From: Candidatus Tenderia sp.
Lineage (GTDB): Bacteria > Pseudomonadota > Gammaproteobacteria > Tenderiales > Tenderiaceae
Length of the DNA stretch: 42,765 nt
Assembly (NCBI GenBank): GCA_043755075.1
Contig: JAYUTP010000003.1
Location: 1 to 42,765 of the forward strand
Direction of reading: 5' to 3'
Shown here: positions 295 through 36,425 of the stretch, piece by piece
Layout: each line of letters opens with the position of its first letter
Numbering within the stretch: the first letter of the stretch is position 1
Program-made: the position numbers and the translations under genes
Notes under the pieces: model-generated
What the model was told of the DNA's origin: nothing
The model's database searches: none
Seen by the model: the letters and a program-made list of their open reading frames with translations, nothing else

Positions 295-392
295 GGAAAA
301 GCACATCTGCCCACCCCATCAATACTTCATAATATAGCTTGCAAGCATCAATTAACAATTTGATTATAAAGAAATAAGTAACATACAATAGC

Positions 393-479: not shown

Positions 480-828
480 GTGCCTGGCGCCCGTTCGACA
501 CTGGAGCGGATTGCCGGTGCCACCCCCGACATGCAGACATCATTCATCAGGGTTTCACCCGTCACAACGCCACCTATTGGGTTGGTGCCAATGCTAGCAA
601 TATGTCTGGCAACATTAATTAAGATTACTTAACATATGAAGATATATTAATATTATTTTCCGATGGTGGAAAATGTAAGACTCGCTACAAACGATCAGGT
701 AAGGGTATTACAGTGCTTGGCTGGGCGAAGAGTAGGTAGAACGCAGTTTTTCCGAAAAAGCAGTTAAACGCTAGAGTAATGCGAGGCTTTTTTGGGTTGT
801 TTAGGGCTTCTTTAATGGGTGAGCAAGC

Positions 829-1821
829 ATGAAATACCGTTTAGCAATGCATTGCAAACTAGCTTCATTGTTGCTGGCCCCGCTGTTTTTAACCCCAGCG
901 GCTGTCCACGCTGAGTTCGTCCTCAACTTCCAGCCCCAGCTCACCCGCCTAGGCGACCCGGAATGGCTGAACTTCAACTGTAATCGGCCGCGTACTCCCG
1001 GCAGCGGTTTTGAAGGCTGCGACGAGAACGATGAATTCCGCGACAAGAATGGCCTCGACACCACCGCCTTCCTGATGGAACGGGTCCGCGACTCGGTCAC
1101 AGGCGAACAGTACTACCACACCATCATCGGCCTGCCGGGTGATTCCTTCGTTCAGGAAACCTACATCAAGATAGTACGTTTCAATCCCAAGGACGGCGTT
1201 TTTAGCTCGATACCCCAAGAAGACGTGGACGACGCTGGCGCGATATCCGACAGCTTGGGTAACTGGACAGACATTACAGAGAAGCCCGCGCTCGGGACCG
1301 TCAACGTCAACAACGCCTACGACCCACTCGGCAAAGCCTCTTTCTCCGGCAGCGGCACCGCCAACCCCAAGAGCACCCAGTTCCGCCAGGTGATCGATAG
1401 CAATGGCGTCTATCAGGAGATCACCAAGGCCAGCTTCAACAAAAAACACCGCATCGTCCAGAACATAGACAACAGCGGACTCGTTGGTAAATTCGACTTG
1501 GATATGACCAACAGCACCTTTGATCAAGCCAACATTGCCGGCATCATGAACAAAAACGAGCAGTCCATCACCAGCGGCGGCAAATTAATCAGCACCTTTG
1601 ACATCAATAATATACCCACCAATGGCAACAGCAATGTCAATATCTCCGGCGGAAAATACAAGTACGTCCAGAAATACACCACCTCCATGACGGGCAGCAA
1701 CTTCCAAAACGAGTACGAAGGCGCAGGTGCCGGCTACAACATCTGGCTAGAGGACTGGAAGGCCTGGCGTGTCCCATCGCAGAACGTTGGACATTTGTAT
1801 GGTCCTCAAAAAAATAATTGA
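829..1821 (+). CDS. Secreted protein of unknown function (330 aa)
   Basis: Long ORF with a Sec signal ending in AVHA/EF. Mature part is N/S/G/T-rich with one Cys pair. No recognisable domain. The start could also be the second Met (MHCKL). Confidence 0.8.
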   Translation: MKYRLAMHCKLASLLLAPLFLTPAAVHAEFVLNFQPQLTRLGDPEWLNFNCNRPRTPGSGFEGCDENDEFRDKNGLDTTAFLMERVRDSVTGEQYYHTIIGLPGDSFVQETYIKIVRFNPKDGVFSSIPQEDVDDAGAISDSLGNWTDITEKPALGTVNVNNAYDPLGKASFSGSGTANPKSTQFRQVIDSNGVYQEITKASFNKKHRIVQNIDNSGLVGKFDLDMTNSTFDQANIAGIMNKNEQSITSGGKLISTFDINNIPTNGNSNVNISGGKYKYVQKYTTSMTGSNFQNEYEGAGAGYNIWLEDWKAWRVPSQNVGHLYGPQKNN

Positions 1822-1939
1822 TGGGTGTGATACTACTATTACCCCATTAGAACGGTTATTTTCCGCGCCTGATTTGATAATGGATTGCTCAATCACGCGC
1901 ACTGGCACTGTGCTGACAACTTTTAAAGAGTAGACAAAC

Positions 1940-3715
1940 ATGCGTTGCAAAACCTCACTATCCATCACCTGCCTAGTGGCATTTACCCTGATAAGCGGCC
2001 CGGTGCAAGCGCTGGTCACCAGCGCCACCACACCCACCAGTACAATTACGCAGCTGACCGATTACGCCTCCACCCGCGGGACACATGCATCCACCGCCCC
2101 CGACATCTCCAAGGATGGCTCTACCATCGTCTTCAACTCGACTGCTGATCTGGTGCCTGGGGGCAATCCGAACAACCTCGAAAACATCTACATAATGAAG
2201 AGCGATGGCAGCGGACTGCGCCAGCTTACCGCCGCCATCGCCCCCACCTCCCCCGTAGAACATACCGCCTATTACCGCACCACCACCCCACCACGCCTCT
2301 CGGCCAATGGCAAGGTGGTGGTTTTTGCATCCTATTTTGACCTGACCGGCAAGAATCCACCGGAATATATTTCCGATCCGCTCCACTACCTCCCCAACTA
2401 TCAGCTCTTCATCATCAACAGTGATGGCACCAACCTCAGACAACTGACTCGTGGCACGGGCGGACACTCAATCTCGCCACGTATCTCCAACGACGGTAGC
2501 ACCATCGTCTTTGAATCGACCCATGATCTTGTTGTCGGTAGCAATAGTCTCGTCAATACCCGAGGTAATCACGTCAAGCAGATCTTCGTCATCCGTGCTA
2601 ACGGCACCGGCCTGACCCAAATCACCAACGGTGGACCACAACCGACAGGCAGAAACATTCGCGATGATGAATCACGCAACGTATCCATCTCCGGTGACGG
2701 TACGACCGTGGCGTTTGACTCTTTCAACGACCTGCTGCCACCGAAGAACGACGACTGGAGTAACGAGATATTTGTCTTTGATCTGGCCAAATACTGGAGT
2801 GACCGAGCCACCAACATCATCAATGGCCTGACCCACTATACCGTGCAGGTCACCGACACCGATGTCGATGCGCCATTCCATATCCGCGCCGAAGACGCCT
2901 TCGAACCGAGCCTCTCGTATGACGGAAAAAAAGTCACTTTTTCAGGCTGCATCAACCCCTACGGCGAAGGTATCAAAAACCCAGACAGAACAATCCTGGG
3001 CGACAATCCTTTCCTGACCGACGTCATTTTTGTGGCCAATAGCGACGGCAGCGGGCTGCTGCGCCAGCTCACCTTTAGCGATGATCCCAATGCCTACACC
3101 GGCACGAACTGGAGGAATATCGATGACGATGCCCATTGGCCAGAGATCAGCGCCGACGGCAGCAAGATCGTCTTTGGCAGCCGCTCCAGAGCCGACCTCG
3201 CCGCCCCCAAACCAGGCTCGCCACGACTTTACGAAATCGCCATGATCGACCTCAAGGCGCCACTGGACCGCAATGGCCGCCCAGTGGTAGAACAAATCAC
3301 CAGCTCCCCCAGGTTAGGGGTGATGCAGCTAACCTTCGGCGGCACCGACGGTGCCCGGCTTCGCCCCAGTATCAATGCCGATGCCAGCCTGATAACCCTG
3401 CGTACAACGTCCGACTTTACTGGCGGCAATGTGGATAAAAACAGCGAGATCTTTTTGATCAAACCATTGGTGGCTGATAAAACTACTACAGACGATGACA
3501 CTACCACCGCTGCGACGAACGATAACGCCACCACCAGCGTCACCACCCAGCAGAACAGCGATAGCACAACCACTGAAACTAGCGCTGTCAACAATCAAGG
3601 CAGCGCAAGCAAGGCCAGTAGCACTACAACAGGCGGCGGTGCGTTTGGTTTAATCGAGTTGCTCTTCAGTATGGGCGCGCTTGGCAGCTTAATCCTGCGC
3701 CGCCGTTCAGCTTAA
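1940..3715 (+). CDS. TolB-like (PD40-repeat) beta-propeller surface protein with GlyGly-CTERM sorting signal
   Basis: Signal peptide ending VQA. Seven P-x-I-S-x-D-G-x-x-I-V-F-x-S-type repeats and several DGxxLRQLT repeats. Thr/Ser-rich linker, then GGGAFG + hydrophobic helix + RRR at the C-terminus. Confidence 0.88.
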   Translation: MRCKTSLSITCLVAFTLISGPVQALVTSATTPTSTITQLTDYASTRGTHASTAPDISKDGSTIVFNSTADLVPGGNPNNLENIYIMKSDGSGLRQLTAAIAPTSPVEHTAYYRTTTPPRLSANGKVVVFASYFDLTGKNPPEYISDPLHYLPNYQLFIINSDGTNLRQLTRGTGGHSISPRISNDGSTIVFESTHDLVVGSNSLVNTRGNHVKQIFVIRANGTGLTQITNGGPQPTGRNIRDDESRNVSISGDGTTVAFDSFNDLLPPKNDDWSNEIFVFDLAKYWSDRATNIINGLTHYTVQVTDTDVDAPFHIRAEDAFEPSLSYDGKKVTFSGCINPYGEGIKNPDRTILGDNPFLTDVIFVANSDGSGLLRQLTFSDDPNAYTGTNWRNIDDDAHWPEISADGSKIVFGSRSRADLAAPKPGSPRLYEIAMIDLKAPLDRNGRPVVEQITSSPRLGVMQLTFGGTDGARLRPSINADASLITLRTTSDFTGGNVDKNSEIFLIKPLVADKTTTDDDTTTAATNDNATTSVTTQQNSDSTTTETSAVNNQGSASKASSTTTGGGAFGLIELLFSMGALGSLILRRRSA

Positions 3716-3793: not shown

Positions 3794-5761
3794 ATGAAGA
3801 TTAATCGCCGCATCGCACATAAACTGGCGGTGCTTTGCCTACCACCCTTCCTACTGTTAAGCGGCTGCTCTTCAAATAACACCGCGCAGACCGACGGACA
3901 CTCCGTTGCCCGCCAATGGAATGAGGCGCTCTTAGCGGCGATCCGTGTGGACTATGCCCGCCCTACAGTTCATTCCCGCAATCTCTTCCACACCTCCGCG
4001 GTCATGTATGACGCTTGGACGGTGTTCGACAAAGTCGCCCACCCCTATCTGCTCGGCAAAAGCGTTAATGGTTATAACTGCGCCTTCACCGGCTTTACCC
4101 CAACCACAGAGGTAACGTCCACCCGCAAGGAGGCGATCAGTTATGCCGCCTATCGGCTGCTGTCACATCGGTTCAAGAACTCCCCGGCGGCAACTGCGTC
4201 GCAATCCCGCTTCGACACGCTGTTATCAGATCTTGGCTATGACGCCACCCTCACATCAACCGACTATTCAGACGGCTCCGCCGCCGCATTAGGCAACCAT
4301 ATTGCAGCGTGCATGATCAGCTATGGCCTGCAGGATGGCTCCAATGAGGGCAATCTCTATGCCAGCGTTTCATACCAACCATTAAACCCGCCACTTGTAC
4401 CGACACTGCCCGGCAATCCAGACATTATCGACCTCAATCGCTGGCAGCCGTTGAATATGGACACCTTTATTGATCAATCGGGAAATCTTATTCCTGACGC
4501 TGTCCCCCACTTCCTCGGCCCCGAATGGGGGCGCGTCGCGCCATTTTCGCTCACCGCCGCCGATCGCAATATCTATCAACGCGACGGTGTCGATTATAGG
4601 GTCTACAACGATCCGGGCGCCCCACCGTACATTGACATCGTTAATGGCGGCGCCTCCGCCGAAGAGTACAAATGGAATTTCTCTCTGGTATCGGCCTGGT
4701 CCTCCCACCTAGATCCAAGCGATGGGGTGATGTGGGATATCTCCCCCGCTGCCCTGGGGAACAACCAAAGCCTGCCGCAAACACTGGCCGAATATCAAAA
4801 TTTTTACAATCTGCGCGACGGCGGGGACTCCGGCACCGGGCACCCCCTCAACCCCTACACCGGCAAACCCTATGCACCCAACGTGGTCCCGCGCGGCGAC
4901 TATACCCGGGTGTTGGCCGAGTTCTGGGCCGATGGCCCCGCCTCTGAAACTCCGCCTGGCCACTGGTTTTCGATACTCAATCATGTCAGCGACCAGCCTG
5001 AGCTGAAAAAGCGTTTTCGTGGCCAGGGGCCGGTGCTAAATAGTTTGGAGTGGGACGTCAAAGGCTACTTCGCCTTGGGCGGTGCCGTTCATGACGCCGC
5101 CATCTCAGCCTGGGGCATCAAGGGCTGGTACGATTATGTACGGCCAATTTCTGCAATACGGGCGATGGCGGCACGTGGCCAAGGCTCTGGTCCACTGCTC
5201 CCCGGCTACTCTGTTGCCGGCCTACCACTGATTCCCGGCTTGATTGAGCGCGTGCTCCCTAGCGATCCGCTGGCGCTGACGGGCGACGCCAATAATATCG
5301 GTAAGATTAAGCTCTATGCCTGGCGCGGCACGACATTCGTCCCCGATCCCGCAATCTATATTGCCGGCGTTAACTGGATACTGGCGGAAAACTGGGTCCC
5401 CTATCAACGCCCCTCGTTTGTGACGCCGCCCTTTGCTGGTTACGTCTCAGGCCACTCGACCTTCTCGCGCGCCGCCGCTGAGGTGCTGACCTTGCTCACG
5501 GGTGACGAATATTTCCCTGGCGGTCTGGTCGAATTCAAAGCACCCAAAACTTCATTCCTTGTTTTTGAAGCAGGCCCCAGCGTTGATGTCACCTTGCAGT
5601 GGGCAACCTACCACGACGCCTCGGATCAAACCAGCCTGTCACGTATCTGGGGCGGCATTCACCCGCCCGCCGACGATATCCCTGGCCGCATTATTGGGGA
5701 GAAGGTTGGCGTTGCCGCCTTTAACCGGGCCGAAAGCTACTTCACCGGCACAGGGCAATAA
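3794..5761 (+). CDS. Vanadium-dependent haloperoxidase-family lipoprotein (PAP2 superfamily)
   Basis: Lipobox LSG-C25. The three vanadate-site motifs are present: KGWYDYVRP (Kx6RP), TPPFAGYVSGHSTF and SRIWGGIHP. Confidence 0.88.
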   Translation: MKINRRIAHKLAVLCLPPFLLLSGCSSNNTAQTDGHSVARQWNEALLAAIRVDYARPTVHSRNLFHTSAVMYDAWTVFDKVAHPYLLGKSVNGYNCAFTGFTPTTEVTSTRKEAISYAAYRLLSHRFKNSPAATASQSRFDTLLSDLGYDATLTSTDYSDGSAAALGNHIAACMISYGLQDGSNEGNLYASVSYQPLNPPLVPTLPGNPDIIDLNRWQPLNMDTFIDQSGNLIPDAVPHFLGPEWGRVAPFSLTAADRNIYQRDGVDYRVYNDPGAPPYIDIVNGGASAEEYKWNFSLVSAWSSHLDPSDGVMWDISPAALGNNQSLPQTLAEYQNFYNLRDGGDSGTGHPLNPYTGKPYAPNVVPRGDYTRVLAEFWADGPASETPPGHWFSILNHVSDQPELKKRFRGQGPVLNSLEWDVKGYFALGGAVHDAAISAWGIKGWYDYVRPISAIRAMAARGQGSGPLLPGYSVAGLPLIPGLIERVLPSDPLALTGDANNIGKIKLYAWRGTTFVPDPAIYIAGVNWILAENWVPYQRPSFVTPPFAGYVSGHSTFSRAAAEVLTLLTGDEYFPGGLVEFKAPKTSFLVFEAGPSVDVTLQWATYHDASDQTSLSRIWGGIHPPADDIPGRIIGEKVGVAAFNRAESYFTGTGQ

Positions 5762-5800
5762 TGAGCGAAGTTAACGGGTAGCCGTGTTACTTCAGCATAG

Positions 5801-5830
5801 CGGGTGATTGCAGCTCGCCGATTGTTTTTT
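5801..5830 (+). terminator. Possible intrinsic terminator between the convergent haloperoxidase and rnhB genes
   Basis: Short imperfect GC stem CGGGTGA/TCGCCG followed by TTGTTTTTTT. Confidence 0.4.
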
Positions 5831-5836
5831 GATCAT

Positions 5837-6427
5837 TTACACCAATCCCAGTACCCGCTTCACCGGCCCAAAGCTGCGCCGGTGAATCTCTGTTACGCCT
5901 AACTTTTGTAGCGCTTCGAGGTGCTCCTGGGTGGGGTAACCTTTGTGTTTGGCGAAGCCGTAACCGGGATAGCGGGCATCCATCTCCACCATCTCACGGT
6001 CGCGGGTCACCTTGGCAAGAATGGAGGCGGCGCTGATTGAAGGTTCACTCTGGTCGCCCTTAATGATCGCCTCCGCAGGGCAGCCAAAGTCAGGAGCGCG
6101 GTTACCATCCACCAGCACTTTATCAGGGGCGATTTTGAGCGCTGCAACGGCGCGTTGCATGGCGATCATGGTGGCTTGAAGGATATTGTGCTGGTCGATC
6201 TCTGCCACCTCACAACGGCCGATGGCCCAGGCCAGAGCCTTCGCCTTTATCTCGGGAAAGAGTGCTTCGCGTTTAGCCTCAGAAAGCGTCTTGGAGTCCA
6301 TCAGTCCGACGATGGGGTTATTGGGATCAAGGATCACGGCGGCGGTAACAACTGGCCCGGCAAGTGGGCCGCGACCGACTTCATCAACACCTGCGATCAG
6401 CGGTGTTGTTCGTTTTGTTGGTGACAT
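5837..6427 (-). CDS. rnhB: Ribonuclease HII
   Basis: [35 protein letters not shown] and HKGYPT motifs. Confidence 0.98.
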
Positions 6428-6823
6428 CCATTACCCCTTATTCTGTTTTACAACTCCACGCCGATGCGGCGAGCCACTTTACCAGCTCGTCCGCTGGCAA
6501 TCCTTTAAGATAGCCAAGCGATGAGTAGCTGGTGCCAAATCAATGAGCGATAGATAACCTCATCGTCAGCCGAGTTGATGGCTAACAGCATGGCGAGCTG
6601 CTTTTCCATTGAAAACCGCTCGTAACAAGTGTCGTAAACCACAATTGCAGGTGGTCGCTATGTGCAACTCGCCCACGGGTAGAACCATCGTGTAATAGAT
6701 GTATCCTTGCCAGCGGCAGAGTCCGGATAGAGTTTTGAGTTGATCACTATCATGGCTATTTACTGAGGATTTTGATTTTCTGGCCGTTAGACGGCCATCA
6801 TTGCCGTAACAACCAACGCTAAT

Positions 6824-7150
6824 CTATTGTTTTTCTATGATATTACGTTTCTCTGGATAAAGTTGATAGATGTCCCATGTACCATTGGCACGGGAATAAT
6901 CGGCCAGCTTTTTATACTCTTCAAAACTGAGGGACTTCATGTCCTCACAACGCTTCAAAGAGTTCTCGTAATCCTCTGGATCGGCATTCACAAACTCTGA
7001 CGAAAGAAGAGCAGCCATGTCCACACAACGGGTCTTTGCCAATTGTTCATAACGCAACTGGTCATATTTCGGGTCATCTTTGTCGACACCGCAACCTGCT
7101 GCCAATACGGTGAATAAAGCGGCTATTGTGATCTTTGATTTTTGCATCAT
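6824..7150 (-). CDS. Small lipoprotein of unknown function (108 aa)
   Basis: Lipobox LAAG-C20. Start overlaps the lpxB stop (ATGA). Two RCxDM motifs. Confidence 0.75.
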   Translation of the reverse strand: MMQKSKITIAALFTVLAAGCGVDKDDPKYDQLRYEQLAKTRCVDMAALLSSEFVNADPEDYENSLKRCEDMKSLSFEEYKKLADYSRANGTWDIYQLYPEKRNIIEKQ

Positions 7151-8298
7151 CGGGTAATTTCCTGAGTAGTTTTCTGGATTAGACCCAGCACTGCTGTGGC
7201 GGCGCTGTTGCTAGCATCACGGCGCAACGTCTGGTGAATCTCATCAAACAGCTGACTGATAGTCGCGGCGTTGACCTTATCTTCGAGCAATTTGATGACT
7301 TCGGTGGCGATATTCGCTGCCGTGGCCTCTGCCTGCAACAGCTCCTTCACCACCTCACGCCCCGCCAGCACGTTGGGCAACGCGACGAAGGGCGACTTGA
7401 GCAGCAACTTGACCAGCAGGTAGCCCAGCGCCGAGAGTTTATATGTAACCACCATGGGGCGTTTCACCAACAGCGCCTCCAGCGTGGCCGTGCCAGAAGC
7501 CAGCACCACCACATCGGCGGCCGCCATCACCTCGCGGGAACGGCCATCCACCAGCGTCAACGCCGGGCTATTGCCCTGCTCGGCATAGATCTGCTCAAAG
7601 CGTTCACGAACCTTCGGCGACGCCATCGGCACCACAAACCGCACCGCAGGATGTTGCTGTTTAATCAAGGCGGCGGAGTCCAGCAGTAGTTCTGTCAGGC
7701 GATTAATCTCGGAGAGGCGACTACCGGGCAACAGCGCCACCACCACCTCATCTATGCCAATGCCCAACCCCTGACGCATCGCTGTTTGATCCACTTTGAG
7801 TGGAATCATATCGGCCAATGGGTGGCCGACAAAGGTGACCGGCACCTGATGTTTTTTATAAAACTCAGCTTCAAAAGGGAAGAGCGTCAGAACCATATCC
7901 ACCGAGCGGGCGATCTTCTTGATTCGATACTGGCGCCAAGCCCATACCGATGGGCTGACATAGTGAACAGCCTTAATCCCCTGATTTTTGAGTTTGCGCT
8001 CAATGGTGAGATTGAAGTCAGGGGCATCGATACCGATGAAAAGATCAGGTGGATTTTGACTAAAGTGCTCCACCATCTGGTTCTGAATGCCTTTTAGTTC
8101 GCGGTAGTGAACCAACGCTTCAAACCCCATCACCGCCAGTTTTTCAGCCGGGTGGAAGGCACAGCAACCAGCCTTGATCATGGCTGGCCCGGCGATCCCT
8201 TCAAATTTGACATCAGGGTGGCGTGCCTTGATCGCCTCGATCAAACCTGCGCCTAATAGATCTCCCGATGCCTCTCCCGCGATGATTCCGATCTTCAT
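7147..8298 (-). CDS. lpxB: Lipid-A-disaccharide synthase
   Basis: MKIGIIAGEASGDLLGA, GIDAPDFN, HYVSPSVWAWR, LLPGSR and SGTATLE motifs. Start trimmed to ATG 8298. Confidence 0.97.
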   Translation of the reverse strand: MKIGIIAGEASGDLLGAGLIEAIKARHPDVKFEGIAGPAMIKAGCCAFHPAEKLAVMGFEALVHYRELKGIQNQMVEHFSQNPPDLFIGIDAPDFNLTIERKLKNQGIKAVHYVSPSVWAWRQYRIKKIARSVDMVLTLFPFEAEFYKKHQVPVTFVGHPLADMIPLKVDQTAMRQGLGIGIDEVVVALLPGSRLSEINRLTELLLDSAALIKQQHPAVRFVVPMASPKVRERFEQIYAEQGNSPALTLVDGRSREVMAAADVVVLASGTATLEALLVKRPMVVTYKLSALGYLLVKLLLKSPFVALPNVLAGREVVKELLQAEATAANIATEVIKLLEDKVNAATISQLFDEIHQTLRRDASNSAATAVLGLIQKTTQEITR

Positions 8299-8316
8299 AT
8301 CAACCCATCCGCTCCA

Positions 8317-8354
8317 TAAAACAAAGGAGCATGGCCAGTAGGTAACCATGCTCC
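8317..8354 (-). terminator. Intrinsic terminator-like hairpin just upstream of lpxB
   Basis: Perfect 9-bp stem GGAGCATGG (8326-8334)/CCATGCTCC (8346-8354), followed on the minus strand by TTTGTTTT. Confidence 0.6.
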
Positions 8355-8377
8355 CTCGTTTATCGCCAATACTCTAA

Positions 8378-8519
8378 AGGGCATTTCTATAAGTCCGCTG
8401 AAGCCACAATGGCCGCGTTGGAAATGGGCTCAAAATGCTCATGTACTACGTGTACACTGCGCTTTTTCGCCCATTTCCGCCTCGCCCTCACGGCTTGATC
8501 TAATTTATAGAAGTGCCCT
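8378..8519. mobile_element. MITE-like palindromic element (142 bp)
   Basis: 15-bp terminal inverted repeats AGGGCATTTCTATAA / TTATAGAAGTGCCCT (14/15 match). Nested internal arms GGAAATGGGC/GCCCATTTCC and TGTAC/GTACA. Non-coding. Confidence 0.7.
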
Positions 8520-8522
8520 AAA

Positions 8523-9305
8523 TTAACGAACGATGCCACGCCCGGAGTTACGCACAAACTCAGCAAGTTGCACGACTGGCTCAAACTCATCCATTAGCGG
8601 TTTGAGCTGCTCCAACGCCTGCACGACCGTGAGACCGGAGCGATAGATAATCTTGTAAGATTTACGCAACGCCTTAATCGCCTCTGGCGTAAAACCACGG
8701 CGGCGCAGCCCTTCCAAGTTCAGCCCATGAGGTTCGGCAGGCTGCCCCGCAACCATCATAAAGGGAGGAACATCCTTCGCAATGGCGCTGCCCATACCCA
8801 CAAAACTATGGGCCCCCACCACACAAAACTGATGAATCAGGCTGGCACCCCCCAGGATCACATGATCCTCAATGATAACGTGACCCGCGAGCGTCGCGTT
8901 GTTGGCTAGAATGGTGCTATTGCCCACTTCACAGTCATGGGCAATATGAACATAAGCCATAATCCAGTTATCATTGCCAATCTTGGTCGTGCCCTTATCC
9001 TGCACGGTACCGCGATTAAAGGTGCAGTATTCACGTATCACATTACGATCACCAATCTCCAGCAGCGTTGGCTCACCGTTATATTTTTTATCCTGTGGAT
9101 CTTCGCCTATGGATGAGAATTGATAGAACTTGTTCTCTTTTCCAATACGACAAGGTCCATTAATCACCACATGGGGACCAATCCAAGTGCCTTCGCCAAT
9201 CTCAACGTCAGGGCCAATAACCGAGTACGGACCAATCGACACCCCCTCGGCGATGCGGGCTTTTGGATCGATGACAGCTCTGGAATCAATAACGGGAACA
9301 ATCAC
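8523..9305 (-). CDS. lpxA: UDP-N-acetylglucosamine O-acyltransferase
   Basis: Hexapeptide repeats, PQDKKY and HIAHDC motifs, located after fabZ. Start set at GTG 9305. Confidence 0.97.
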   Translation of the reverse strand: MIVPVIDSRAVIDPKARIAEGVSIGPYSVIGPDVEIGEGTWIGPHVVINGPCRIGKENKFYQFSSIGEDPQDKKYNGEPTLLEIGDRNVIREYCTFNRGTVQDKGTTKIGNDNWIMAYVHIAHDCEVGNSTILANNATLAGHVIIEDHVILGGASLIHQFCVVGAHSFVGMGSAIAKDVPPFMMVAGQPAEPHGLNLEGLRRRGFTPEAIKALRKSYKIIYRSGLTVVQALEQLKPLMDEFEPVVQLAEFVRNSGRGIVR

Positions 9306-9307
9306 GC

Positions 9308-9772
9308 TCAGACTTCCCTCTCCGCACACATCAACTCTGCACTACAGACAACTTTGCTACCCACTCTAGCCTCACAGTCAAATTTCCAGACACCACGCAT
9401 GGTTCTAACCACTTTAACCTCAAGTAACAGTTGATCACCCGGCTCTACCGGCTGTTTGAAACGGGCACCATCAACACCCACAAAGTAATAGAGTGATCGC
9501 GCAGTAGGTTTTGAATTGGTGGTTTTGAATGCCAAAATTCCAGTCGCCTGAGCTAGCGCCTCAAGAATCAGTACCCCCGGCATCACCGGACGATGAGGAA
9601 AGTGACCTTGGAAATAGGGTTCATTGTATGAGACATTTTTGATTGCCGTCAGATATTCACCAACCTTATAGTCGATAACCCGGTCAACCAGCAAAAACGG
9701 ATAACGATGCGGCAGATGTTCCAACACCTCGTAAATATCCATTGTGCTTAACGTATTTTTGACTTCATCCAT
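9308..9772 (-). CDS. fabZ: 3-hydroxyacyl-ACP dehydratase
   Basis: [13 protein letters not shown] and [22 protein letters not shown] motifs. Confidence 0.98.
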
Positions 9773-9776
9773 AACA

Positions 9777-10811
9777 CTATTCCCGATCAGAATTTATTTT
9801 TATTCCAGCTTTTTCCAGGGCTCGAAGTCGTTGAGCAATATCATTCAATTGTCTGACACGGGCTGCGTTTCTGGTCCACTCCGCCCGCGGTTCTGCTGGA
9901 ATTCCGGAGGAGTAAACCCCGGCAAGGCCAATATTACCAGTCACCAGCGACATAGCGGTAACGTGAACATCATCCGCAATCGTCAAATGGCCAACTATTC
10001 CAACGGCACCGCCAATCTGACAACGTTTACCAATAGTGGTACTTCCAGCAATGGCGGCACACCCGGCAATGGCAGTGTAGGCACCTATATGAACGTTATG
10101 AGCGACCTGAATCTGGTTATCCAGCTTAACCCCCTCTTCAATCACGGTATCCTCAAGGGCGCCGCGATCGATGGTGGTATTGGCACCGATTTCGACATCA
10201 TCACCGATCACCACACTCCCCAGCTGTGGCACCTTGACCCAGCGGCCCGCGTCATTGGCAATACCAAAGCCATCACCACCAATCACAACACCAGGATGAA
10301 TCAACACCTTTGCGCCAATACGTACTCCATGGCAGATCGTAACCCGGGCCGTCAGGCGGCTATTGGCACCGATACTCACATCACGTTCCAACACACATCC
10401 CGGCCCGAGGAACACACCTGGGCCGATACGACTCCCCGCCCCAACATAACAGTGAGCGCCAATGCTGGCGGAGGCGTCAACGTCACACCCCGCTTCAATC
10501 ACAGCCGAGGGATGTACCCCCGCCGCAGACAACTGCTCAGGATTCAACAGACGCGCCGCTTTGGCGTAGGCCAAATAGGGGTTACTGCTGACCAGTGCAT
10601 TCACAGGACAGAGCGCCAAATCCTGAGGGTACAATATTACCGCGCTAGCCTGTGTCGTCTTCAGGTAACTGCGATACTTTGAATTAGCCAGAAACGAGAG
10701 TTCGCCTACACCGGCACTTTGCAACGTACCAACCCCCGTGACCAAACAGTGCGAATCACCATGCAGCTCACATTCGATCTCACCAGCCAACTGTTGCAGG
10801 GTCACTCCCAT
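9777..10811 (-). CDS. lpxD: UDP-3-O-(3-hydroxyacyl)glucosamine N-acyltransferase
   Basis: LSFLAN, DGFG, TIDRGA and [12 protein letters not shown] motifs, with hexapeptide repeats. Confidence 0.98.
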
Positions 10812-28278: not shown

Positions 28279-29667
<1,389 letters not shown>

Positions 29668-29716
29668 AGCACAATTTAACTAAACACAGCCCAGAGACAA
29701 CTTAGGAGATAACACC

Positions 29717-30109
29717 TTGCCAATACATTGGCTCGCCGCACTAAAACTCGTCCCATGGGGCACTGTACTTGAAGCCGCCCCACACATCGTCAAAGGGGCA
29801 AAAACCCTCATCGCCAAAACCAAGGCCGATGCGGCGACTCAACCTGAAACCTCATCCACACCAGAAGCCCCGCTCTCAGATAGCGACAAGTTAATAAAGC
29901 TTAACCATCGCGTTCTGGAGATGCAGAAACAGATCAACGAGCTAAGCGCGGAACAGAAAACATCGGCAGAACTGATCAAGCTGCTTGCCGAGCAGAATGC
30001 AGCGGTGGTTAAAGCGATTGAGGTCTTTAGGATTCGGACGAGGGTGCTTATGGTTGTCTGTGCGTTGTTGGCGGGCGCGCTGGCGATGGTCACGTACGGG
30101 CTTAGATAG
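29717..30109 (+). CDS. Hypothetical protein with coiled coil and C-terminal transmembrane helix
   Basis: AGGAG ribosome-binding site before TTG. WLAALKLVPW N-terminus, heptad region and hydrophobic tail. Confidence 0.75.
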   Translation: MPIHWLAALKLVPWGTVLEAAPHIVKGAKTLIAKTKADAATQPETSSTPEAPLSDSDKLIKLNHRVLEMQKQINELSAEQKTSAELIKLLAEQNAAVVKAIEVFRIRTRVLMVVCALLAGALAMVTYGLR

Positions 30110-30175
30110 AGCTTGTTTTGAGCATACTATGATAAAGTTTAGGCAAGTGGTTTGTAATCATTAAAGAGAATGTAA

Positions 30176-30961
30176 ATGGCTGAAACACAAATTGAATGGA
30201 CGGATGCAACCTGGAACCCAGTCGCGGGCTGTTCCTTGGAAAGCGCGGGGTGCAAAAACTGTTATGCCATGAAAATGGCTAGGCGATTAGAGGCAATGGG
30301 GGTAGAAAAGTACAAAGGCCTTACCAAGAAACGCGGCAACAACATTACCTGGAATGGACGTGTTAAAGAAGACGAAGAATCCTTGCTAATCCCTTACAAA
30401 TGGAGAAAACCTCGCAAGATATTTGTTAATTCTATGAGCGATTTATTTCACGACACGGTTAGTGATAAATTCATACTTTCTGTTTGGAAAGTCATGAGCA
30501 ACACACCTCAACACAATTATCAAATTCTTACGAAGCGTCCAGAAAGAATGCTACAGGTTGTAAAGCATAATATAAAAACCGTATTGCCGAATGTATGGCT
30601 AGGAACAAGCGTAGAAAATAATGAAGTAACCGACCGAATAAACTTCCTACGCAAGACTCCCGCTTCAGTTCGATTCATATCTTTCGAACCACTTATCGAC
30701 TCCGTTGGCCCTGTAAACTTAAGGAGCATTCATTGGGCCATAGTTGGCGGCGAGAGCGGGAGCAACGCCAGACCCATTAAAGAAGAATGGATTGATGAAA
30801 TACATAAACAATGCGAAAAATACGACACCGCATTTTTCTTTAAACAATGGGGTTCGTGGGGAAAAGACAACCAGAAGCGCTCTAAAAAAGCTAACGGTCG
30901 TGAATACAGAGGTAAAATTTGGGATGAAATGCCAGCCACGATAGGTGGCGCAGCCGTATAA
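30176..30961 (+). CDS. DUF5131 (phage Gp37/Gp68-like) three-Cys, radical-SAM-like protein
   Basis: TQIEWTDATWNPVAGCSLESAGCKNCYA (Cx6Cx2C), IFVNSMSDLFH, QILTKRPER, FISFEPL, WAIVGGESG and FFFKQWG motifs. Confidence 0.93.
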   Translation: MAETQIEWTDATWNPVAGCSLESAGCKNCYAMKMARRLEAMGVEKYKGLTKKRGNNITWNGRVKEDEESLLIPYKWRKPRKIFVNSMSDLFHDTVSDKFILSVWKVMSNTPQHNYQILTKRPERMLQVVKHNIKTVLPNVWLGTSVENNEVTDRINFLRKTPASVRFISFEPLIDSVGPVNLRSIHWAIVGGESGSNARPIKEEWIDEIHKQCEKYDTAFFFKQWGSWGKDNQKRSKKANGREYRGKIWDEMPATIGGAAV

Positions 30962-30973
30962 CAGGGTGGCCTC

Positions 30974-32227
30974 GTGGTAAAGAAAATTATTGATTGGGAA
31001 TCTGGTGCCGAACTAGAAGAGCACACGAAGAAAAAACACGCCATTCTTGGTGATTATTTTAGGAAATACCTGATCACTCGCTGTCAGCTACCTCAGCAGG
31101 AAAAGTTCAGACTTGCCATTATCGATGGCTTCTCTGGTGCAGGTCTATATAAATGCGGAAGCTTCGGCTCCCCCCTAATTTTTGTCGACGTTCTTACCAA
31201 AACAACATGCGAGATCAACTTGAGCCGAGCAACTCAAGGATTGCGGCCAATAACAATTGAGTGCTTGCTAATTTTAAACGACGAATACAAAACAACAATC
31301 GAACAGCTTCGCAAAAATATCTCCCCTCTTTTGGCTGCGATAAAAGACGATGACCAAAACCTACGTATTGAACCCGAGTTCTATAATCATTCATTTAAAG
31401 AGATATACCCGGAAATAAAAAAAAGATTACTCACTGCAAAATGTAGAAATGTAATCTTCAACCTAGATCAATGTGGTTATTCAGACGTTCCAACAGAAAT
31501 AATAAGAGACATCATTAACTCATGGAGTTCAGCAGAAGTATTGCTAACCTTTATGATCGGCAGTCTATTAACGTATCTATCTCCAAAAAAAGATGCATCA
31601 GGTGTGCCTTTAGAACCCATTGTCAGGAACAAAATAGATGATCTACTGGAAAATGGTGATGTACTCCTTGGAAAAAAAGAATGGCTTGGCGAAGCTGAAA
31701 AGATTGTTTACTCACACTACAAAAACTGTGCAACCTACGTAAGCCCATTTTCAATAAATAACCCGAAAGGATGGCGCTATTGGCTGATGCACTTTGCAAA
31801 TTCATATCGGGCTCGACAAGTTTATAACGACATACTTCATAAAGATGGGGAGTCCCAAGCCCATTTTGGACGAGCAGGCTTGAACATGTTGTCATATGAC
31901 CCTCAAGACAAAGTACAGCTATATCTGTTTAATAAAAATTCGAGACAATCCGCTAAAGAAGCACTTTATGACGACATCCCAAGATTTGTTGCCGAGTCTG
32001 GCGACACACTCTCTATGCATGATTTTTATGCTGCCGCATACAGTGAAACACCAGCACATAGTGATGACATCCATGAAATGATCATGAAGAACCCTGACAT
32101 GGAGGTTATAACGGAGACAGGTGGTAAACGGAAGCAACCAAACACCATAAAAGCAAGCGACACCTTAAAACTAAGGAGTCAGAAAAGCATGTTTTTCATG
32201 TTCACGGACATGACCAATAAAAAATAA
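30974..32227 (+). CDS. tcmP: Three-Cys-motif partner protein (TcmP family), SAM-methyltransferase-like fold
   Basis: HTKKKHAILGDY, IIDGFSGAGLY...GSPL and FNLDQCGY motifs; 417 aa; starts 12 bp after the DUF5131 gene, its known partner. Confidence 0.85.
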   Translation: MVKKIIDWESGAELEEHTKKKHAILGDYFRKYLITRCQLPQQEKFRLAIIDGFSGAGLYKCGSFGSPLIFVDVLTKTTCEINLSRATQGLRPITIECLLILNDEYKTTIEQLRKNISPLLAAIKDDDQNLRIEPEFYNHSFKEIYPEIKKRLLTAKCRNVIFNLDQCGYSDVPTEIIRDIINSWSSAEVLLTFMIGSLLTYLSPKKDASGVPLEPIVRNKIDDLLENGDVLLGKKEWLGEAEKIVYSHYKNCATYVSPFSINNPKGWRYWLMHFANSYRARQVYNDILHKDGESQAHFGRAGLNMLSYDPQDKVQLYLFNKNSRQSAKEALYDDIPRFVAESGDTLSMHDFYAAAYSETPAHSDDIHEMIMKNPDMEVITETGGKRKQPNTIKASDTLKLRSQKSMFFMFTDMTNKK

Positions 32228-32246
32228 ACGCGGTAAGGCGAACCTT

Positions 32247-32279
32247 GCAGGGCATCAATAAGCGAAGCGCATTGCGCCG
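32247..32279 (+). repeat. Degenerate REP-like palindrome
   Basis: GCAGGGCATCAATAAGCGAAGCGCATTGCGCCG resembles GTAG-family REPs with a GCGAAGC mini-hairpin. Confidence 0.5.
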
Positions 32280-32441
32280 AATGGAGTATGGCGTTGTGTT
32301 GCTGCGCAAGAGCCTGCCCCACGAAGCGTTTTGGGTACGCTTGGTGGGTTACGCAAAATACGCTCTTGTGCCCTGCGGGTGAACACACCCACATTTTATT
32401 AGAGCGGATGTTTATTCACCGGTGACGATAGAAACCAGCGA

Positions 32442-32522
32442 GTAGCCCGGATGGAGTAAAACGTAATCCGGGATGATTATGCACCATCGCCCCCGGATTT
32501 CACTACGTTGCAACCGGGCTAC
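32442..32522. repeat. Inverted REP doublet (REPIN-like)
   Basis: Two 31-nt GTAG-led units in inverted orientation, 19 bp apart: GTAGCCCGGATGGAGTAAAACGTAATCCGGG and (reverse) GTAGCCCGGTTGCAACGTAGTGAAATCCGGG. Confidence 0.8.
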
Positions 32523-32567
32523 ATGACACTGATACCAATGATGCAATCCACGTAGCTTTATTGGTGA

Positions 32568-33794
32568 TCAACTCGGCTTCTGATCACCCACCACACCCAC
32601 TTCCTCCAACGCCGGTATCCGCCACCACAACATCAACGCAATGGCCACCAACGCCAACTGCCCCAGCGCCAGATGGGCAGGATGGTCGCTTAGGAATGGC
32701 ACGGCCAGACTGGCGATGAAGGCGTTGGAGAGCATCTGCACAAACCCTTGCATGGCGGAGGCGCTGCCGCGATTTTGGGGGAAGCAGTCGAGCGACATCA
32801 CCATCATGGCGGGCATGGCGATACCAATGCCGATGGTGTAGAAGACCAGCGGTGCGATGGCGGTGATGACCCTTGCTTCAAGGAATAATCCCTGTGCGGC
32901 ATTCAGCAGTGCGCCACAACTCATCAACGTTAATGCCAAGGTCATGGTCCGTTCACGCGGCCAGCGGTGGGCGAGTTGGCCGCTGAGCCAGGCGCCGCAG
33001 ATCATGCCGCCGACCATGGGGCCGAACATCATGTAAAAGTCGGTGGTGTCGAGCTTCAAAAAATCAAACACCACGGTTGGCGCGCCGGCGATATATAGGA
33101 ACATGCCGCCGAAGTAACAGGCCACCATGAAGATCAATGATTGAAAGCGGCGATGCACCAGGGTGCGGCCATAGACTCGCGCGACGCTCGCGGGGTGAAA
33201 TGATTGGCGCTGCGCTGGCGCCAGTGTCTCGGGTATCAGCCACGTCACGAGCAGTAATACCATCGCGCTGTATATCGCCAGAAAATAGAAGACGCTGTGC
33301 CAGCCGAAGGCTTCATGCAACCAGCCGCCAATCATGGGCGCGACTGCCGGGGCTATGGCAAAGAGCATCATCACCCGCGACATGGCGCGTTGAGCATCCT
33401 GCGGGTTGTAGACGTCACGAATCATGGTGCGCCCTGCCGCTAATCCCCCACCGGCGGCTACTCCCTGTAACAGTCGAAACAGCAGGAAGGTTGCGTAGTC
33501 GTTTGAGAGTGCACACCCCAAGGACGCCACTACATAAAACCCCAGCGTGAAGAGCACCACCACGCGTCGCCCCAAACGATCTGACAACGGCCCCCATACC
33601 AGCGTTGAAACGGCAAACGCGACTAGGTAAAAGGCGAGACTCTGTGACAACAGAGCGCGGCTGATATCAAAGTCCGCCTCAATCGCCGGGAATGAGGGCA
33701 GATAGGTGTCAATGGTCAACGGGCCGATCATCGTTAACAGGGCGACAATGAGGGTCAAGTGCTTGGCTGGGGTTTGGGTATGTGGCACTAACAC
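32568..33794 (-). CDS. Bcr/CflA-family multidrug efflux MFS transporter
   Basis: IDTYLPSFP, GPLSDRLGRR and APAVAPMIGG motifs; about 12 hydrophobic segments. Confidence 0.93.
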   Translation of the reverse strand: MLVPHTQTPAKHLTLIVALLTMIGPLTIDTYLPSFPAIEADFDISRALLSQSLAFYLVAFAVSTLVWGPLSDRLGRRVVVLFTLGFYVVASLGCALSNDYATFLLFRLLQGVAAGGGLAAGRTMIRDVYNPQDAQRAMSRVMMLFAIAPAVAPMIGGWLHEAFGWHSVFYFLAIYSAMVLLLVTWLIPETLAPAQRQSFHPASVARVYGRTLVHRRFQSLIFMVACYFGGMFLYIAGAPTVVFDFLKLDTTDFYMMFGPMVGGMICGAWLSGQLAHRWPRERTMTLALTLMSCGALLNAAQGLFLEARVITAIAPLVFYTIGIGIAMPAMMVMSLDCFPQNRGSASAMQGFVQMLSNAFIASLAVPFLSDHPAHLALGQLALVAIALMLWWRIPALEEVGVVGDQKPS

Positions 33795-34070
33795 TTTGCT
33801 TTATAGGGTTGAGTCGATTGAGGAGTGACGCTGATAAAAAGATAACCGGGGCAGACCAGCGCCACGATTTACTGAGTACGAACGGCATAGTTTACCCGCA
33901 AACAACCACCGTGATGTAGGTGGATAAAATGGTCGTCGTTGACGAGTGAGGCGTATCAATATCTCGTTGTAGATCAATTTTAGTTCGTTATTATCTACGT
34001 GCATAAAGTTGACTCATCACGCTGAAACAGCAACTATAACCAATGCTAATTTATTGAAGGAGCATCTACC

Positions 34071-34952
34071 GTGAACAGCCAAGCAGGCATCCTCAGCCCC
34101 CTTCCCCGTCATGCCCGTTACATGATGTTTACCTTTGAGCCTGAGAGCAGCGACCTGAGTGGTGTGCTGGAGCCGCTGCTGGAGTTGGTGGATGGCGATG
34201 CCACCGTGGTTGGCCTGGGCCCGTCGTTGCTGGCGGCCTTTGGCAGAAACATTCCGGGGCTACGCTCTTTTCCCAGCATGAGTGGCCCGGGTTTTGATAT
34301 TCCGGTGACGCAATATTCGCTCTGGCTCTGGCTGCGCGGTAATGATCGCGGTGAGCTGCATCTACGCAGTCGCGAGATTGAACACACGCTGGAGATAGAC
34401 TTCAGATTGCAGGAGGTGCTGGATGGTTTTGTTTATGGCCTCGGTCTAGATCTGACTGGCTATGAAGATGGCACCGAGAATCCGCAGGATGATGAGGCGA
34501 TCACAGCGGCGATTATTCAGGGGCTGGGCGATGGCTTGGATGGCTCCAGCTTTGTGGCAGTACAACAATGGCAACACAACCTAGATCGCTTTGAACACAT
34601 GGAACAAGAAGAGCAGGACAACACCATCGGCCGCCGCAAGAGTGATAACGAGGAGCTAGCCGATGCCCCACCATCGGCCCACGTCAAACGTACCGCCCAA
34701 GAGAGTTTCAGCCCGGAAGCCTTTATGGTGCGCCGTTCTATGCCCTGGAGCGAAGGTAATGAGGCAGGACTCAATTTTGTTTCCTTCGTCAAATCGTTGG
34801 ATAGTTTTGAGGTAATGCTGGAACGCATGGCGGGCTATGAAGATGGCATCACTGATGCGCTGTTTACTTTTAGCCGCCCGATCTCCGGCGGCTATTATTG
34901 GTGTCCGCCAATGCTTGATGGGGTATTAGATTTACGGGCGCTGACTGATTGA
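34071..34952 (+). CDS. Dyp-type peroxidase (short class, no signal peptide)
   Basis: GYEDGTENP (GxxDG), GSSFVAVQQWQH, SAHVKRT and MVRRSMPW motifs. Confidence 0.93.
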   Translation: MNSQAGILSPLPRHARYMMFTFEPESSDLSGVLEPLLELVDGDATVVGLGPSLLAAFGRNIPGLRSFPSMSGPGFDIPVTQYSLWLWLRGNDRGELHLRSREIEHTLEIDFRLQEVLDGFVYGLGLDLTGYEDGTENPQDDEAITAAIIQGLGDGLDGSSFVAVQQWQHNLDRFEHMEQEEQDNTIGRRKSDNEELADAPPSAHVKRTAQESFSPEAFMVRRSMPWSEGNEAGLNFVSFVKSLDSFEVMLERMAGYEDGITDALFTFSRPISGGYYWCPPMLDGVLDLRALTD

Positions 34953-34985: not shown

Positions 34986-36425
34986 TCAACCGATACTCCA
35001 CTGGTTGCGGGTAATGTCGGGCGAGGTCATCTGGCCAAGCGCCTCCCAGACGGTGAGGTAGTGGCGTGGCAATACATCCATCCCCGTCGACATCACGCTC
35101 GACGTCCTGTCTCCCCATCGATCAGGCGGTGAAACACCCGCCTGTTGCGCCAGCGTGACAAAGGCTTGTTGCTTAGTGCCCAACTGCCCGGTGGTGCGAT
35201 TGGTGTACTCATCGGGCAGGCCAATGGCGTGACCGAACTCGTGCGCCCCTGGCGAGAAACGATTCCCCGTGTAGGTCGCCTCAAAACCGCTGTCGGGGAT
35301 CAAATCAACCTTACGGTTGGCGGCATCGTTGGCCGCACCCACTGGCCCCAGCGGGTCAATGATTAAAGGTTGCGGCACACCCGCTCCACTCAATATCCCG
35401 GCGACCGCCTCGGCCCGTTCACGCGACAACCGTTCATTGCGGCCGCGCTGCCCTTCGGCACTGGCGAACCCCCGTAGAATGACGGGGATGGCCGGGTCGG
35501 TAGGGTTTTTCGCCCGCATCGTCGCCGCCAGGGTGCGCAGACGGCCATCAAACGGCGGCTGGATGGCTGCACTGTTTTGGCCAAACTGGACCGGCGAGGC
35601 CATAGCACTGGCGATGGCCCGCTCCAGCCGCTGCCGTTCTGAACGCGCCACATCGAGACTGCGGCGGTTTGCCAGCTCATTGACATCATTTTCGTCCATA
35701 CTCCCCGTGCCTTGCCAAGCGGCGGTCCCCGGATTACGCGCACCAAAGGAGGAGGTGCGTTCTCCCCCCGGATTCGACATCTTAAAGACCGTAACATTGA
35801 AGTGGGCGGCCGCCGGATCGCTGACAATATTAGGCGTGATATGGGGTTGGGCGGTAAATGGCCAGCACGGTTTGGTGGAGCGGATGGTGTGCTGGAACGA
35901 CCATTGACGAGAGACAGTATCCCGGTAATCACGCTCATATTGACGCTTCTGCGGGTCGGTCCAAAAATAGCGGCTGATGTCCTGTCCGGCCATGACCATA
36001 GGAAAGAGTATCGAAATCGGCGGGGTGTCCTCGGCCTGAACATAGTTAAACTTCATCTTCACGATCGCCGCCATCAGCGAGGAGCGCGGCCAGTAGTAGG
36101 CGTCGAACTTGCCGTAACCGGCCGAGGGGCGGAAGTTAAGGGCGGAGAAGCTGCGGCGGCGAAAAGCATCCTTGCGGTTCTCTTCATCCCAAGTGCTACA
36201 GGCATCGGGGCCGCTTGGCGGGGCGGGCTCTACCTCCGGCACGCCTGCAGGCAACGGCACGCCCGCATCCGTCGGGCCAACGCCGGCATCGCGAACACCG
36301 GCGTCCAACGTCGCCTCGCGCAGGTAGCGAGGCAGACCTGGCGCTGCTTCAGACTCCGCCGAACCGGACGAGTGAGGTGCGCGCTGAACCCGGCGCTGGG
36401 GTGATTCTTGGAGTGGTAAGTACAT
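34986..36425 (-). CDS. OmpA-like peptidoglycan-binding domain fused to a zinc metallopeptidase motif (479 aa)
   Basis: OmpA_C pattern VQFGQNSA...GFASAEG...NERLSRERAEAV...NRKV, followed by HEFGHAIGLPDEY and an SVMS Met-turn. AAGGGG ribosome-binding site. No signal peptide. Confidence 0.82.
   Translation of the reverse strand: MYLPLQESPQRRVQRAPHSSGSAESEAAPGLPRYLREATLDAGVRDAGVGPTDAGVPLPAGVPEVEPAPPSGPDACSTWDEENRKDAFRRRSFSALNFRPSAGYGKFDAYYWPRSSLMAAIVKMKFNYVQAEDTPPISILFPMVMAGQDISRYFWTDPQKRQYERDYRDTVSRQWSFQHTIRSTKPCWPFTAQPHITPNIVSDPAAAHFNVTVFKMSNPGGERTSSFGARNPGTAAWQGTGSMDENDVNELANRRSLDVARSERQRLERAIASAMASPVQFGQNSAAIQPPFDGRLRTLAATMRAKNPTDPAIPVILRGFASAEGQRGRNERLSRERAEAVAGILSGAGVPQPLIIDPLGPVGAANDAANRKVDLIPDSGFEATYTGNRFSPGAHEFGHAIGLPDEYTNRTTGQLGTKQQAFVTLAQQAGVSPPDRWGDRTSSVMSTGMDVLPRHYLTVWEALGQMTSPDITRNQWSIG

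Follow-up and report, generated by a model that had tools for sequence, protein, structure and literature searches.

The closest described system to the genes analysed here is PDC-M30 of PADLOC, in which a long TcmP is combined with DUF5131, and which has a sister candidate, PDC-M41, made up of a short TcmP and DUF5131. RlmJ, the 23S rRNA m6A2030 methyltransferase (PF04378), resembles TcmP in its Rossmann fold with a helical insert, in motif I and the catalytic Asp, which lie in register, and, by pattern only, in an N-terminal K-H pair; TcmP differs from it in carrying DQ(C/Y)G for DPPY and an extra winged helix of ~100 residues, and in being mobile and always beside a radical S-adenosylmethionine (SAM) gene rather than housekeeping. 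Spore photoproduct lyase (4fhc; PF20903) is the best structural match of DUF5131 and belongs to the same radical-SAM megacluster, but DUF5131 has the spacing Cx6Cx2C and not CX3CX2C, is ~80 residues shorter (261 versus 340), and either depends on a TcmP partner or, at the least, is always found with one. TIGR04471 ('radical SAM mobile pair protein A') is, like DUF5131, a small radical-SAM protein with a fixed partner on mobile DNA, although the partner proteins differ, and a radical-SAM plus uracil-DNA-glycosylase-like 'DNA modification/repair' pair, mobile or SOS-controlled, also has a fixed partner. The pair studied here lies in 42,765 nucleotides of Candidatus Tenderia sp. (assembly GCA_043755075.1, contig JAYUTP010000003.1, positions 1 to 42,765 of the forward strand; this whole stretch is the window), where two foreign, AT-rich genes stand amid a housekeeping stretch of a sediment bacterium.

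The window pair is an ordinary copy of the widespread, already catalogued gene pair PDC-M30. The adjacent genes matched both models (PDC-M30A, 1.7e-22, residues 10 to 386 of gene 2; PDC-M30B, 6.2e-99, gene 1; the PADLOC system rules were not applied) and have the order found at related loci, by which we mean the best 80 of 539 confirmed genome loci; the window copy differs from PDC-M30 elsewhere in standing alone in a core region and not embedded in a defence system. A first-pass annotation, made from the letters alone, had proposed a stand-alone DUF5131-TcmP pair as a candidate nucleic acid modification or anti-phage system; the novelty that it gave the pair was overstated, as PDC-M30 is already counted in two Pseudomonas aeruginosa surveys, in those parts of them that were available. 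We read the pair, at a probability of about 0.5, as a bare 2.05-kb cassette of DUF5131 and long TcmP that was acquired horizontally and would serve as a DNA-directed radical-SAM module in conflicts among host, phage and mobile elements. Among single roles we put anti-phage defence first, as an unproven one. The genes and motifs on which this rests are as follows, and the three motifs quoted in the first-pass annotation are all present.

30176-30961, plus strand: gene 1, DUF5131, 261 aa
30230-30262, plus strand: three-Cys motif Cx6Cx2C of gene 1, CSLESAGCKNC (residues 19-29), with C19, C26 and C29 as presumed [4Fe-4S] ligands
30974-32227, plus strand: gene 2, long-type TcmP, 417 aa, GTG start
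31124-31144, plus strand: motif I of gene 2, DGFSGAG (residues 51-57), the presumed SAM-binding loop
31463-31480, plus strand: motif IV position of gene 2, LDQCGY (residues 164-169), replacing RlmJ DPPY
31898-32122, plus strand: C-terminal winged helix-turn-helix of gene 2 (residues 309-383), PF22560 GMT-wHTH

Gene 1 matched DUF5131 ('phage Gp37/Gp68', PF07505) over the full length of the profile (residues 3 to 253 on positions 1 to 243 of 243; E = 4.9e-101; 337.7 bits against a gathering threshold of 28.9), which bore out the family assignment made earlier, and it also matched PDC-M41B (2.9e-103) and the phage family phrog_2045 (2.8e-93). It is not a member of TIGR04471, because its match to that profile (residues 77 to 224; 77.4 bits) fell far below the equivalog cut-off of 355. 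The cysteines C19, C26 and C29, a GGESG stretch and a fourth cysteine, C213, were invariant in 52 aligned DUF5131 sequences, and Cx6Cx2C was found in 76 of the 79 partner genes at related loci, the three misses being open reading frames (ORFs) cut by contig ends. The canonical radical-SAM cluster motif is CX3CX2C, from which gene 1 departs in its spacing; variant Cys spacings occur among accepted radical-SAM members. Solved structures found by sequence were lacking for DUF5131 at E ≤ 1. When the predicted model (pLDDT [predicted local distance difference test] 85.1) was compared by VIA-align, spore photoproduct lyase 4fhc came first (Z 13.1; 195 residues aligned; root mean square deviation 3.0) and viperin second (Z 11.0), the next 17 rows were all radical-SAM (Z 9.0 to 11.0), and all 18 of the top 18 structural rows (Z 9.0 to 13.1) were radical-SAM enzymes, in keeping with a partial TIM-barrel radical-SAM fold. 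Cfr scored lower (Z 8.3), and weak Foldseek matches of the same model (E ~1e-2) included MiaB and RlmN. Gene 1 thus looks most like a radical-SAM-type enzyme with a model closest to spore photoproduct lyase. The part of a curated structure-function classification that was available places DUF5131 as the radical-SAM subgroup Megacluster-5-2, beside spore photoproduct lyase in 5-3 (PMC9477430).

Gene 2 matched TIGR04474 (TcmP) at 186.4 bits against a cut-off of 53 (residues 16 to 291 on profile positions 1 to 262 of 263), again as first assigned. Its predicted model (pLDDT 90.7) has a class I Rossmann methyltransferase fold, for which VIA-align returned DUF519 2oo3 (Z 16.3) and RlmJ 4blw (Z 16.0) with 205 to 214 residues aligned, 2.4 Z units above the next family (Trm1, Z 13.6). 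Searches for solved structures by sequence gave chance-level rows only, and a viral structure library gave generic class I methyltransferases only. The kinship with RlmJ was also seen between profiles: hhalign of 76 TcmP sequences against eight RlmJ orthologues (probability 84.9; E = 6.4e-6) laid DGFxGxG on the RlmJ glycine loop (IDTHAGxGxY) and LDQxG, with D165, on LIDPxY(E), and an alignment of the N-terminal parts alone (probability 88.9) covered motif I. Weak TIGR04474 matches in other genomes of the class were RlmJ genes, and all five that were tested matched PF04378; on TcmP itself, no Pfam match to PF04378 was found at E ≤ 0.01, and the scan returned PF22560 alone. Across the 76 TcmP sequences, G55 of motif I was invariant and D51, G52, F53 and G57 were conserved in at least 90%, D165 at the motif IV position was invariant and L164, Q166 and G168 were conserved in at least 90%, and K21 near the N terminus, which is followed by H22, was invariant. 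As far as the available text of the structural study of RlmJ goes, motif IV of RlmJ is 164-DPPY-167, K18 and D164 are essential, H19 contacts AdoMet (SAM), the motif IV definition for N6-adenine methyltransferases is (D/N)PP(Y/F/W), and the active site is, per the authors, more like those of DNA m6A methyltransferases (PMC3814359). TcmP departs from this definition, having LDQCGY at the aligned position.

The C-terminal ~100 residues of gene 2, which the first-pass annotation had left as unassignable, are accounted for by a winged helix. PF22560 scored 26.6 bits on TcmP, just under its cut-off of 27, and is precomputed on most of the listed close TcmP homologues; in the model, this region consists of helices at residues 321-341, 348-358 and 363-372 and strands at 376-379 and 397-400 (the wing). 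TcmP is, as modelled, an RlmJ-like methyltransferase fold with a C-terminal winged helix, whose role in binding DNA is putative. In a protein atlas, a cluster of 678-aa proteins resembled TcmP (TM 0.68), with an SPL (spore photoproduct lyase) domain in 98% of its members and the TcmP winged helix in 36%; in these proteins, an SPL-like radical-SAM enzyme may be naturally fused to a TcmP-like partner, which is a lead only. A second search of the atlas with PF22560 left out gave nothing above 0.78. Fused DUF5131-TcmP forms were not found among proteins of 780 to 2,225 residues, which is weak evidence, and a 329-aa representative (P0298) that joins a DUF5131 fragment to a TcmP fragment is possibly an artefact.

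The unusual motif IV separates two forms of TcmP. In all six short TcmPs examined (280 to 342 aa), DAFAGxG was found together with LDPY(G/N), while all four other long TcmPs examined (418 to 440 aa) had DGFxGxG and LDQ(Y/T)(G/S), which makes LDQCGY a signature of the long subfamily and no local oddity. The DP(F/Y)G that the first-pass annotation gave for the family therefore holds for the short TcmPs (LDPYG or LDPYN) and fails as a family-wide motif. At some loci, a single DUF5131 is accompanied by two TcmPs, one long and one short (L113 in genome G294, positions 253-3247; L116, positions 5147-10808; L021; L030). At L116, on pSymA of Sinorhizobium meliloti, the genes after the pair are those of a short TcmP (PDC-M41A) and of a helicase of 845 aa with a match to PDC-S28. 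According to the accessible portion of one report, SMa2245 is the Hna defence helicase and SMa2243 a TcmP (PMC12445080), and the pSymA helicase and TcmP ORFs are probably these two genes.

Horizontal acquisition of the pair, as proposed at first reading, is supported by its low G+C content and by its distribution. The two genes are separated by a gap of 12 nt, and the two G+C counts quoted earlier were exact on recount (16 of 60 at 31381-31440, versus 45 of 60 at 29161-29220 in dbpA). The G+C content of the pair is 0.414, compared with 0.60 in dbpA on the left, 0.584 in the major facilitator superfamily (MFS) transporter gene on the right and 0.523 in the window, and third-position G+C is 0.43 and 0.39 in the two genes and 0.77 and 0.72 in the two flanking genes. 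Lower G+C than in the pair was found in 49 of 40,714 windows of 2,052 bp, and the lowest of these windows, starting at 30101, overlaps the pair. Among the 17 genomes of the same taxonomic family, TcmP above the cut-off was present in one, the window genome. DNA similarity to related loci begins at 30176 (at most 24 nt earlier) and ends at 32228, so that it spans the two frames only, and no similarity past both ORFs was found among these loci.

The co-occurrence of DUF5131 and TcmP noted in the first-pass annotation was confirmed. With TcmP as the query, 1,923 of 5,663 candidate proteins were retrieved at E ≤ 0.001 (793 cluster representatives), and the best 80 loci came from Gamma-, Alpha- and Betaproteobacteria and one Thermoanaerobaculia bin. 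DUF5131 lay upstream of TcmP on the same strand in 79 of the 80, the exception being a locus whose contig starts with TcmP; at one locus, the two genes are separated by another TcmP-like gene. The pair had a lower G+C content than every available flank in 66 of the 74 loci having a flank. No third gene was common to the loci, the 680 neighbouring ORFs falling into 557 clusters of which the largest was found in 8 of 80 loci. Pairwise identities of DUF5131 and TcmP were correlated (r = 0.64, a value reached in none of 999 permutations). In a sample of the class, 34 of 301 genomes had DUF5131 and 24 of 300 had a TcmP above the cut-off; both genes, with matches less than 400 nt apart, occurred in 23 of the 24 TcmP-positive genomes. 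Three unpublished genomes (G055, G133 and G287) are counted here, and without them each count falls by at most three and nothing changes. At two loci (L017 and L019), the TcmP was 61 to 65% identical to that of the window and the DUF5131 only 50 to 52%, whereas DUF5131 was 71 to 82% identical at other loci with a similarly close TcmP, which suggests partner exchange between cassette lineages. Five sphingomonads (L044, L045, L046, L049 and L054; Sphingomonas aquatica, Sphingobium, Stakelama and others) had TcmPs scoring 506.3 bits each; the shared score, together with shared helix-turn-helix and HipA neighbours, suggests recent transfer of one element.

The surroundings of the pair in other genomes were assessed with Pfam and PADLOC by comparing a near set of neighbours within three genes of the pair (140 of 317 cluster representatives) with a far control at least 7 kb away (140 of 222 representatives). 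PADLOC matches at E ≤ 1e-12 were ~4-fold more frequent in the near set (27 of 140) than in the far control (7 of 140; Fisher P = 3.7e-4), in line with the enrichment in mobile or defence islands that the first-pass annotation had expected. The near matches included Hachiman HamA and HamB, AbiEi and AbiEii, DarT and DarG, SoFic, Dsr1, Septu PtuA and PtuB, Lamassu LmuB, two type IIG enzymes and a type IV restriction enzyme, and all seven far matches were on generic domains. Pfam families that we labelled ourselves as mobile-element, defence or toxin-antitoxin families made up 39 of 76 annotated near neighbours versus 10 of 68 far ones. Plasmid records with long TcmP numbered 66, of which 30 were conjugative; on plasmid pKLC102, the pair has a DEAD-box helicase gene on one side and conjugative type IVb pilus genes on the other, and neighbours at related loci included ArdC (5 loci), ArdA, ParB-N (6 loci), TrbI (4 loci), serine recombinases (7 loci) and integrases. 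In phages, long TcmP was nearly missing (2 partial matches in 50,697 records, and no PHROG match), and no conserved cognate restriction partner was found at the related loci.

Taken together, these features would fit the following course of events. With its winged helix, TcmP would bind nucleic acid (most probably DNA); it would hold SAM at motif I and present a flipped-out base in an RlmJ-type pocket, in which the catalytic Asp D165 and, as a pattern only, K21-H22 are retained and the prolines of motif IV are lost. DUF5131 would hold a [4Fe-4S] cluster on C19, C26 and C29 and cleave SAM reductively, and the resulting 5'-deoxyadenosyl radical would attack the presented nucleotide, as that of spore photoproduct lyase does a thymine dimer, leaving a covalent change in the DNA. 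Fe-S/radical chemistry plus methyl transfer, the mechanism put forward in the first-pass annotation, is a hypothesis drawn from folds and motifs; as a whole, that interpretation is partly supported, being sound as to identity, foreign origin, pairing and conflict-type context.

A number of points weigh against a conflict module of this kind. Neither methyl transfer nor a DNA substrate is proven, because the nearest solved relatives of TcmP (RlmJ and Trm1) act on RNA and because motif IV is degenerate, and the likeness of K21/H22 to RlmJ K18/H19 is a pattern only, since the profile alignment of the N termini reached motif I alone. Neither gene codes for a nuclease or any other obvious effector. 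The Foldseek comparison that had been suggested as a check gave no PDB match at E ≤ 0.001 for the gene 1 model, so that the radical-SAM fold came from the wider structural search. Among the 37 ORFs of the window searched against Pfam (6 plus 31), no defence or mobile genes were found near the pair, and the argument from defence context is consequently borrowed from other genomes. In that argument, moreover, the near set puts multi-locus clusters first and holds more residues than the far control (47,204 versus 34,278), and the related loci do not count as independent samples. The LexA-type boxes described below fit repair at least as well as defence. PDC-M30 itself is a predicted phage-defence candidate. 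For most such candidates validation is pending, as stated in the part of one article that was available (PMC12988326). Of the two P. aeruginosa surveys, in their available portions, one reports that 68.8% of 32 strains with PDC-M30 were phage resistant, a correlation only, and the other reports PDC-M30 in two copies in PA14. 'PDC-M' is absent from the main text of the preprint said to define PDC-M30 (10.1101/2024.01.29.577857), no phage-protection experiment for PDC-M30 was found in print, and the literature searched held no biochemistry or phenotype of any DUF5131 or TcmP member, only mentions in annotation or classification.

Upstream of DUF5131, we searched for GTTC-N7-GTTC, which we take to be the alphaproteobacterial LexA-type consensus. 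An exact copy or its complement was present within 250 nt in 17 of 74 loci (15 distinct sequences), compared with 15 of 1,404 windows taken from these loci as controls (1.1%; Fisher P = 4e-15). The loci, with the box 28 to 176 nt upstream of DUF5131, were these:

L019, L026, L037, L038, L052, L055, L060, L062, L066
L067, L068, L074, L075, L077, L082, L091, L092

By these matches, the lead applies to some members of the family but does not extend to the window copy, upstream of which no LexA-type box was found (gamma type with up to 2 mismatches, alpha type exact); nor was an exact gamma-type box found in any of the 15 gamma- and betaproteobacterial loci examined. This distribution bears on an SOS repair or lesion module, in which TcmP would flip a damaged base, the SPL-like DUF5131 would reverse or process the lesion and mobility would reflect a benefit under stress. 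We consider such a module rather unlikely, even though spore photoproduct lyase, the closest fold, is a direct-reversal DNA-repair enzyme, the boxes are enriched, a LexA-like gene lies directly upstream at one locus (L021), and an effector domain is lacking in the pair. The lack of a box upstream of the window pair and the gamma-type results just given speak against it, as do the sporadic distribution (34 of 301 genomes of the class) and a low G+C content with defence and plasmid surroundings, which would be unusual for a repair gene; mobile-element genes, besides, are often SOS-controlled. A related reading, which we hold tentatively as a possible one, sees in the pair a new kind of DNA-directed radical-SAM system in which classical methyl transfer has been abandoned: a base-flipping TcmP derived from RlmJ would hand a base or lesion to the SPL-like DUF5131 for an undescribed DNA modification or a radical reversal of damage, with a use that depends on the host, in immunity (PDC-M30), establishment of mobile elements or SOS control.

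The plasmid records and the position on pKLC102, the ArdC, ArdA, ParB-N, TrbI, serine recombinase and integrase neighbours and the match of DUF5131 to phrog_2045 would also suit a service to the mobile element, in which the pair would modify the DNA of the element that carries it (anti-restriction or epigenetic marking), in the course of transfer or afterwards, and help that element to become established. This, too, seems doubtful to us, given that long TcmP is nearly missing from phages, that no conserved cognate restriction partner accompanies it and that the window pair stands alone in the chromosome core with no element to serve. Action on rRNA or tRNA in the manner of RlmN, Cfr and MiaB, which would alter translation or sensitivity to drugs or toxins, is quite improbable: the best solved matches of TcmP are indeed rRNA and tRNA methyltransferases (RlmJ and Trm1), and MiaB, RlmN and Cfr were among the weaker structural matches of DUF5131, but spore photoproduct lyase, a DNA enzyme, ranked first by ~2 Z units, the winged helix, the LexA boxes and the restriction-modification and defence neighbours point to DNA, and so does the resemblance of the RlmJ active site to DNA m6A methyltransferases (PMC3814359, as far as it was available). 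That the window copy is a stranded cassette, inert in its present host, we regard as very improbable. No plus-strand promoter-like site was found in the upstream spacer, where counts were at or below shuffle expectation, and no run recorded as RNA was among the runs listed as holding the locus; both frames, however, are intact and of full length, all family-invariant residues are kept and codon-position G+C is still coding-like. A DNA-directed module in host, phage and mobile-element conflicts is thus the reading that we prefer.

The genes around the pair in the window are housekeeping genes (rpsB-tsf-pyrH-frr-uppS-cdsA-dxr-rseP-bamA-lpxD-fabZ-lpxA-lpxB-rnhB, glnD, eno, ispDF and truD), and no integrase, transposase or phage family was found among the 37 ORFs by Pfam, as the first-pass annotation had it for the adjacent genes. 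The pair is flanked by two spacers:

30110-30175, plus strand: upstream spacer, left edge of the foreign DNA, 66 nt
32228-32567, no strand assigned: right flank, host spacer with dispersed REP-like repeats, 340 nt, outside the cassette

The right spacer contains a 31-nt inverted repeat (32442-32522) and has 19 other partial matches in its own genome, mostly to ~32304-32342, which makes the label 'REP-like' (resembling repetitive extragenic palindromes), given to the palindromes on this side at first reading, a fair one; copies with 73 to 97% identity were found in genomes of the same taxonomic family. No direct or inverted repeats bracketing the pair were seen on the flanks, and a search for RNA families at 29500-32700 gave only one chance-level row (E = 0.79). 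Single contigs, 7,410 nt long in two runs and 4,926 nt in one, span both junctions and cover 29264-34500 and 29266-34190; as such contigs came from four runs of one study, three of which may be the source sample, they indicate a consistent assembly and not independent support.

In three relatives of the genus (G001 to G003), dbpA, a 130-aa ORF and the MFS gene were found on separate contigs, and the fetched flanks shared no second gene of the window; an uninterrupted insertion site is not definable because the flanking genes are unlinked in these genomes, and gene order around dbpA and the MFS gene varies within the genus. The 130-aa ORF (29717-30109) was considered as a third component and rejected, its G+C content of 0.534 being host-like and its position outside the shared DNA; it belongs to no family, and its homologues in the three relatives (61 to 70% protein identity) are unlinked to dbpA. 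Elsewhere in the window, a 479-aa, high-G+C ORF at 34986-36425 on the minus strand has an OmpA-family domain and a zincin-like HEFGH motif near its C terminus. At 28670-29371, contig depth rises to thousands over the conserved DEAD-box motifs of dbpA, where many short foreign contigs have their ends; this spike is a mapping effect of the conserved helicase sequence and not a feature of the locus.

The window copy itself adds little to the family, of which it is a clean minimal example, with two frames, no accessory genes and sharp edges, and as such it would suit cloning. The pair as a whole is common, rides conjugative plasmids and adjoins known defence systems, and a solution of its chemistry could bring a radical-SAM member into the small group of immune or repair enzymes that act on DNA.

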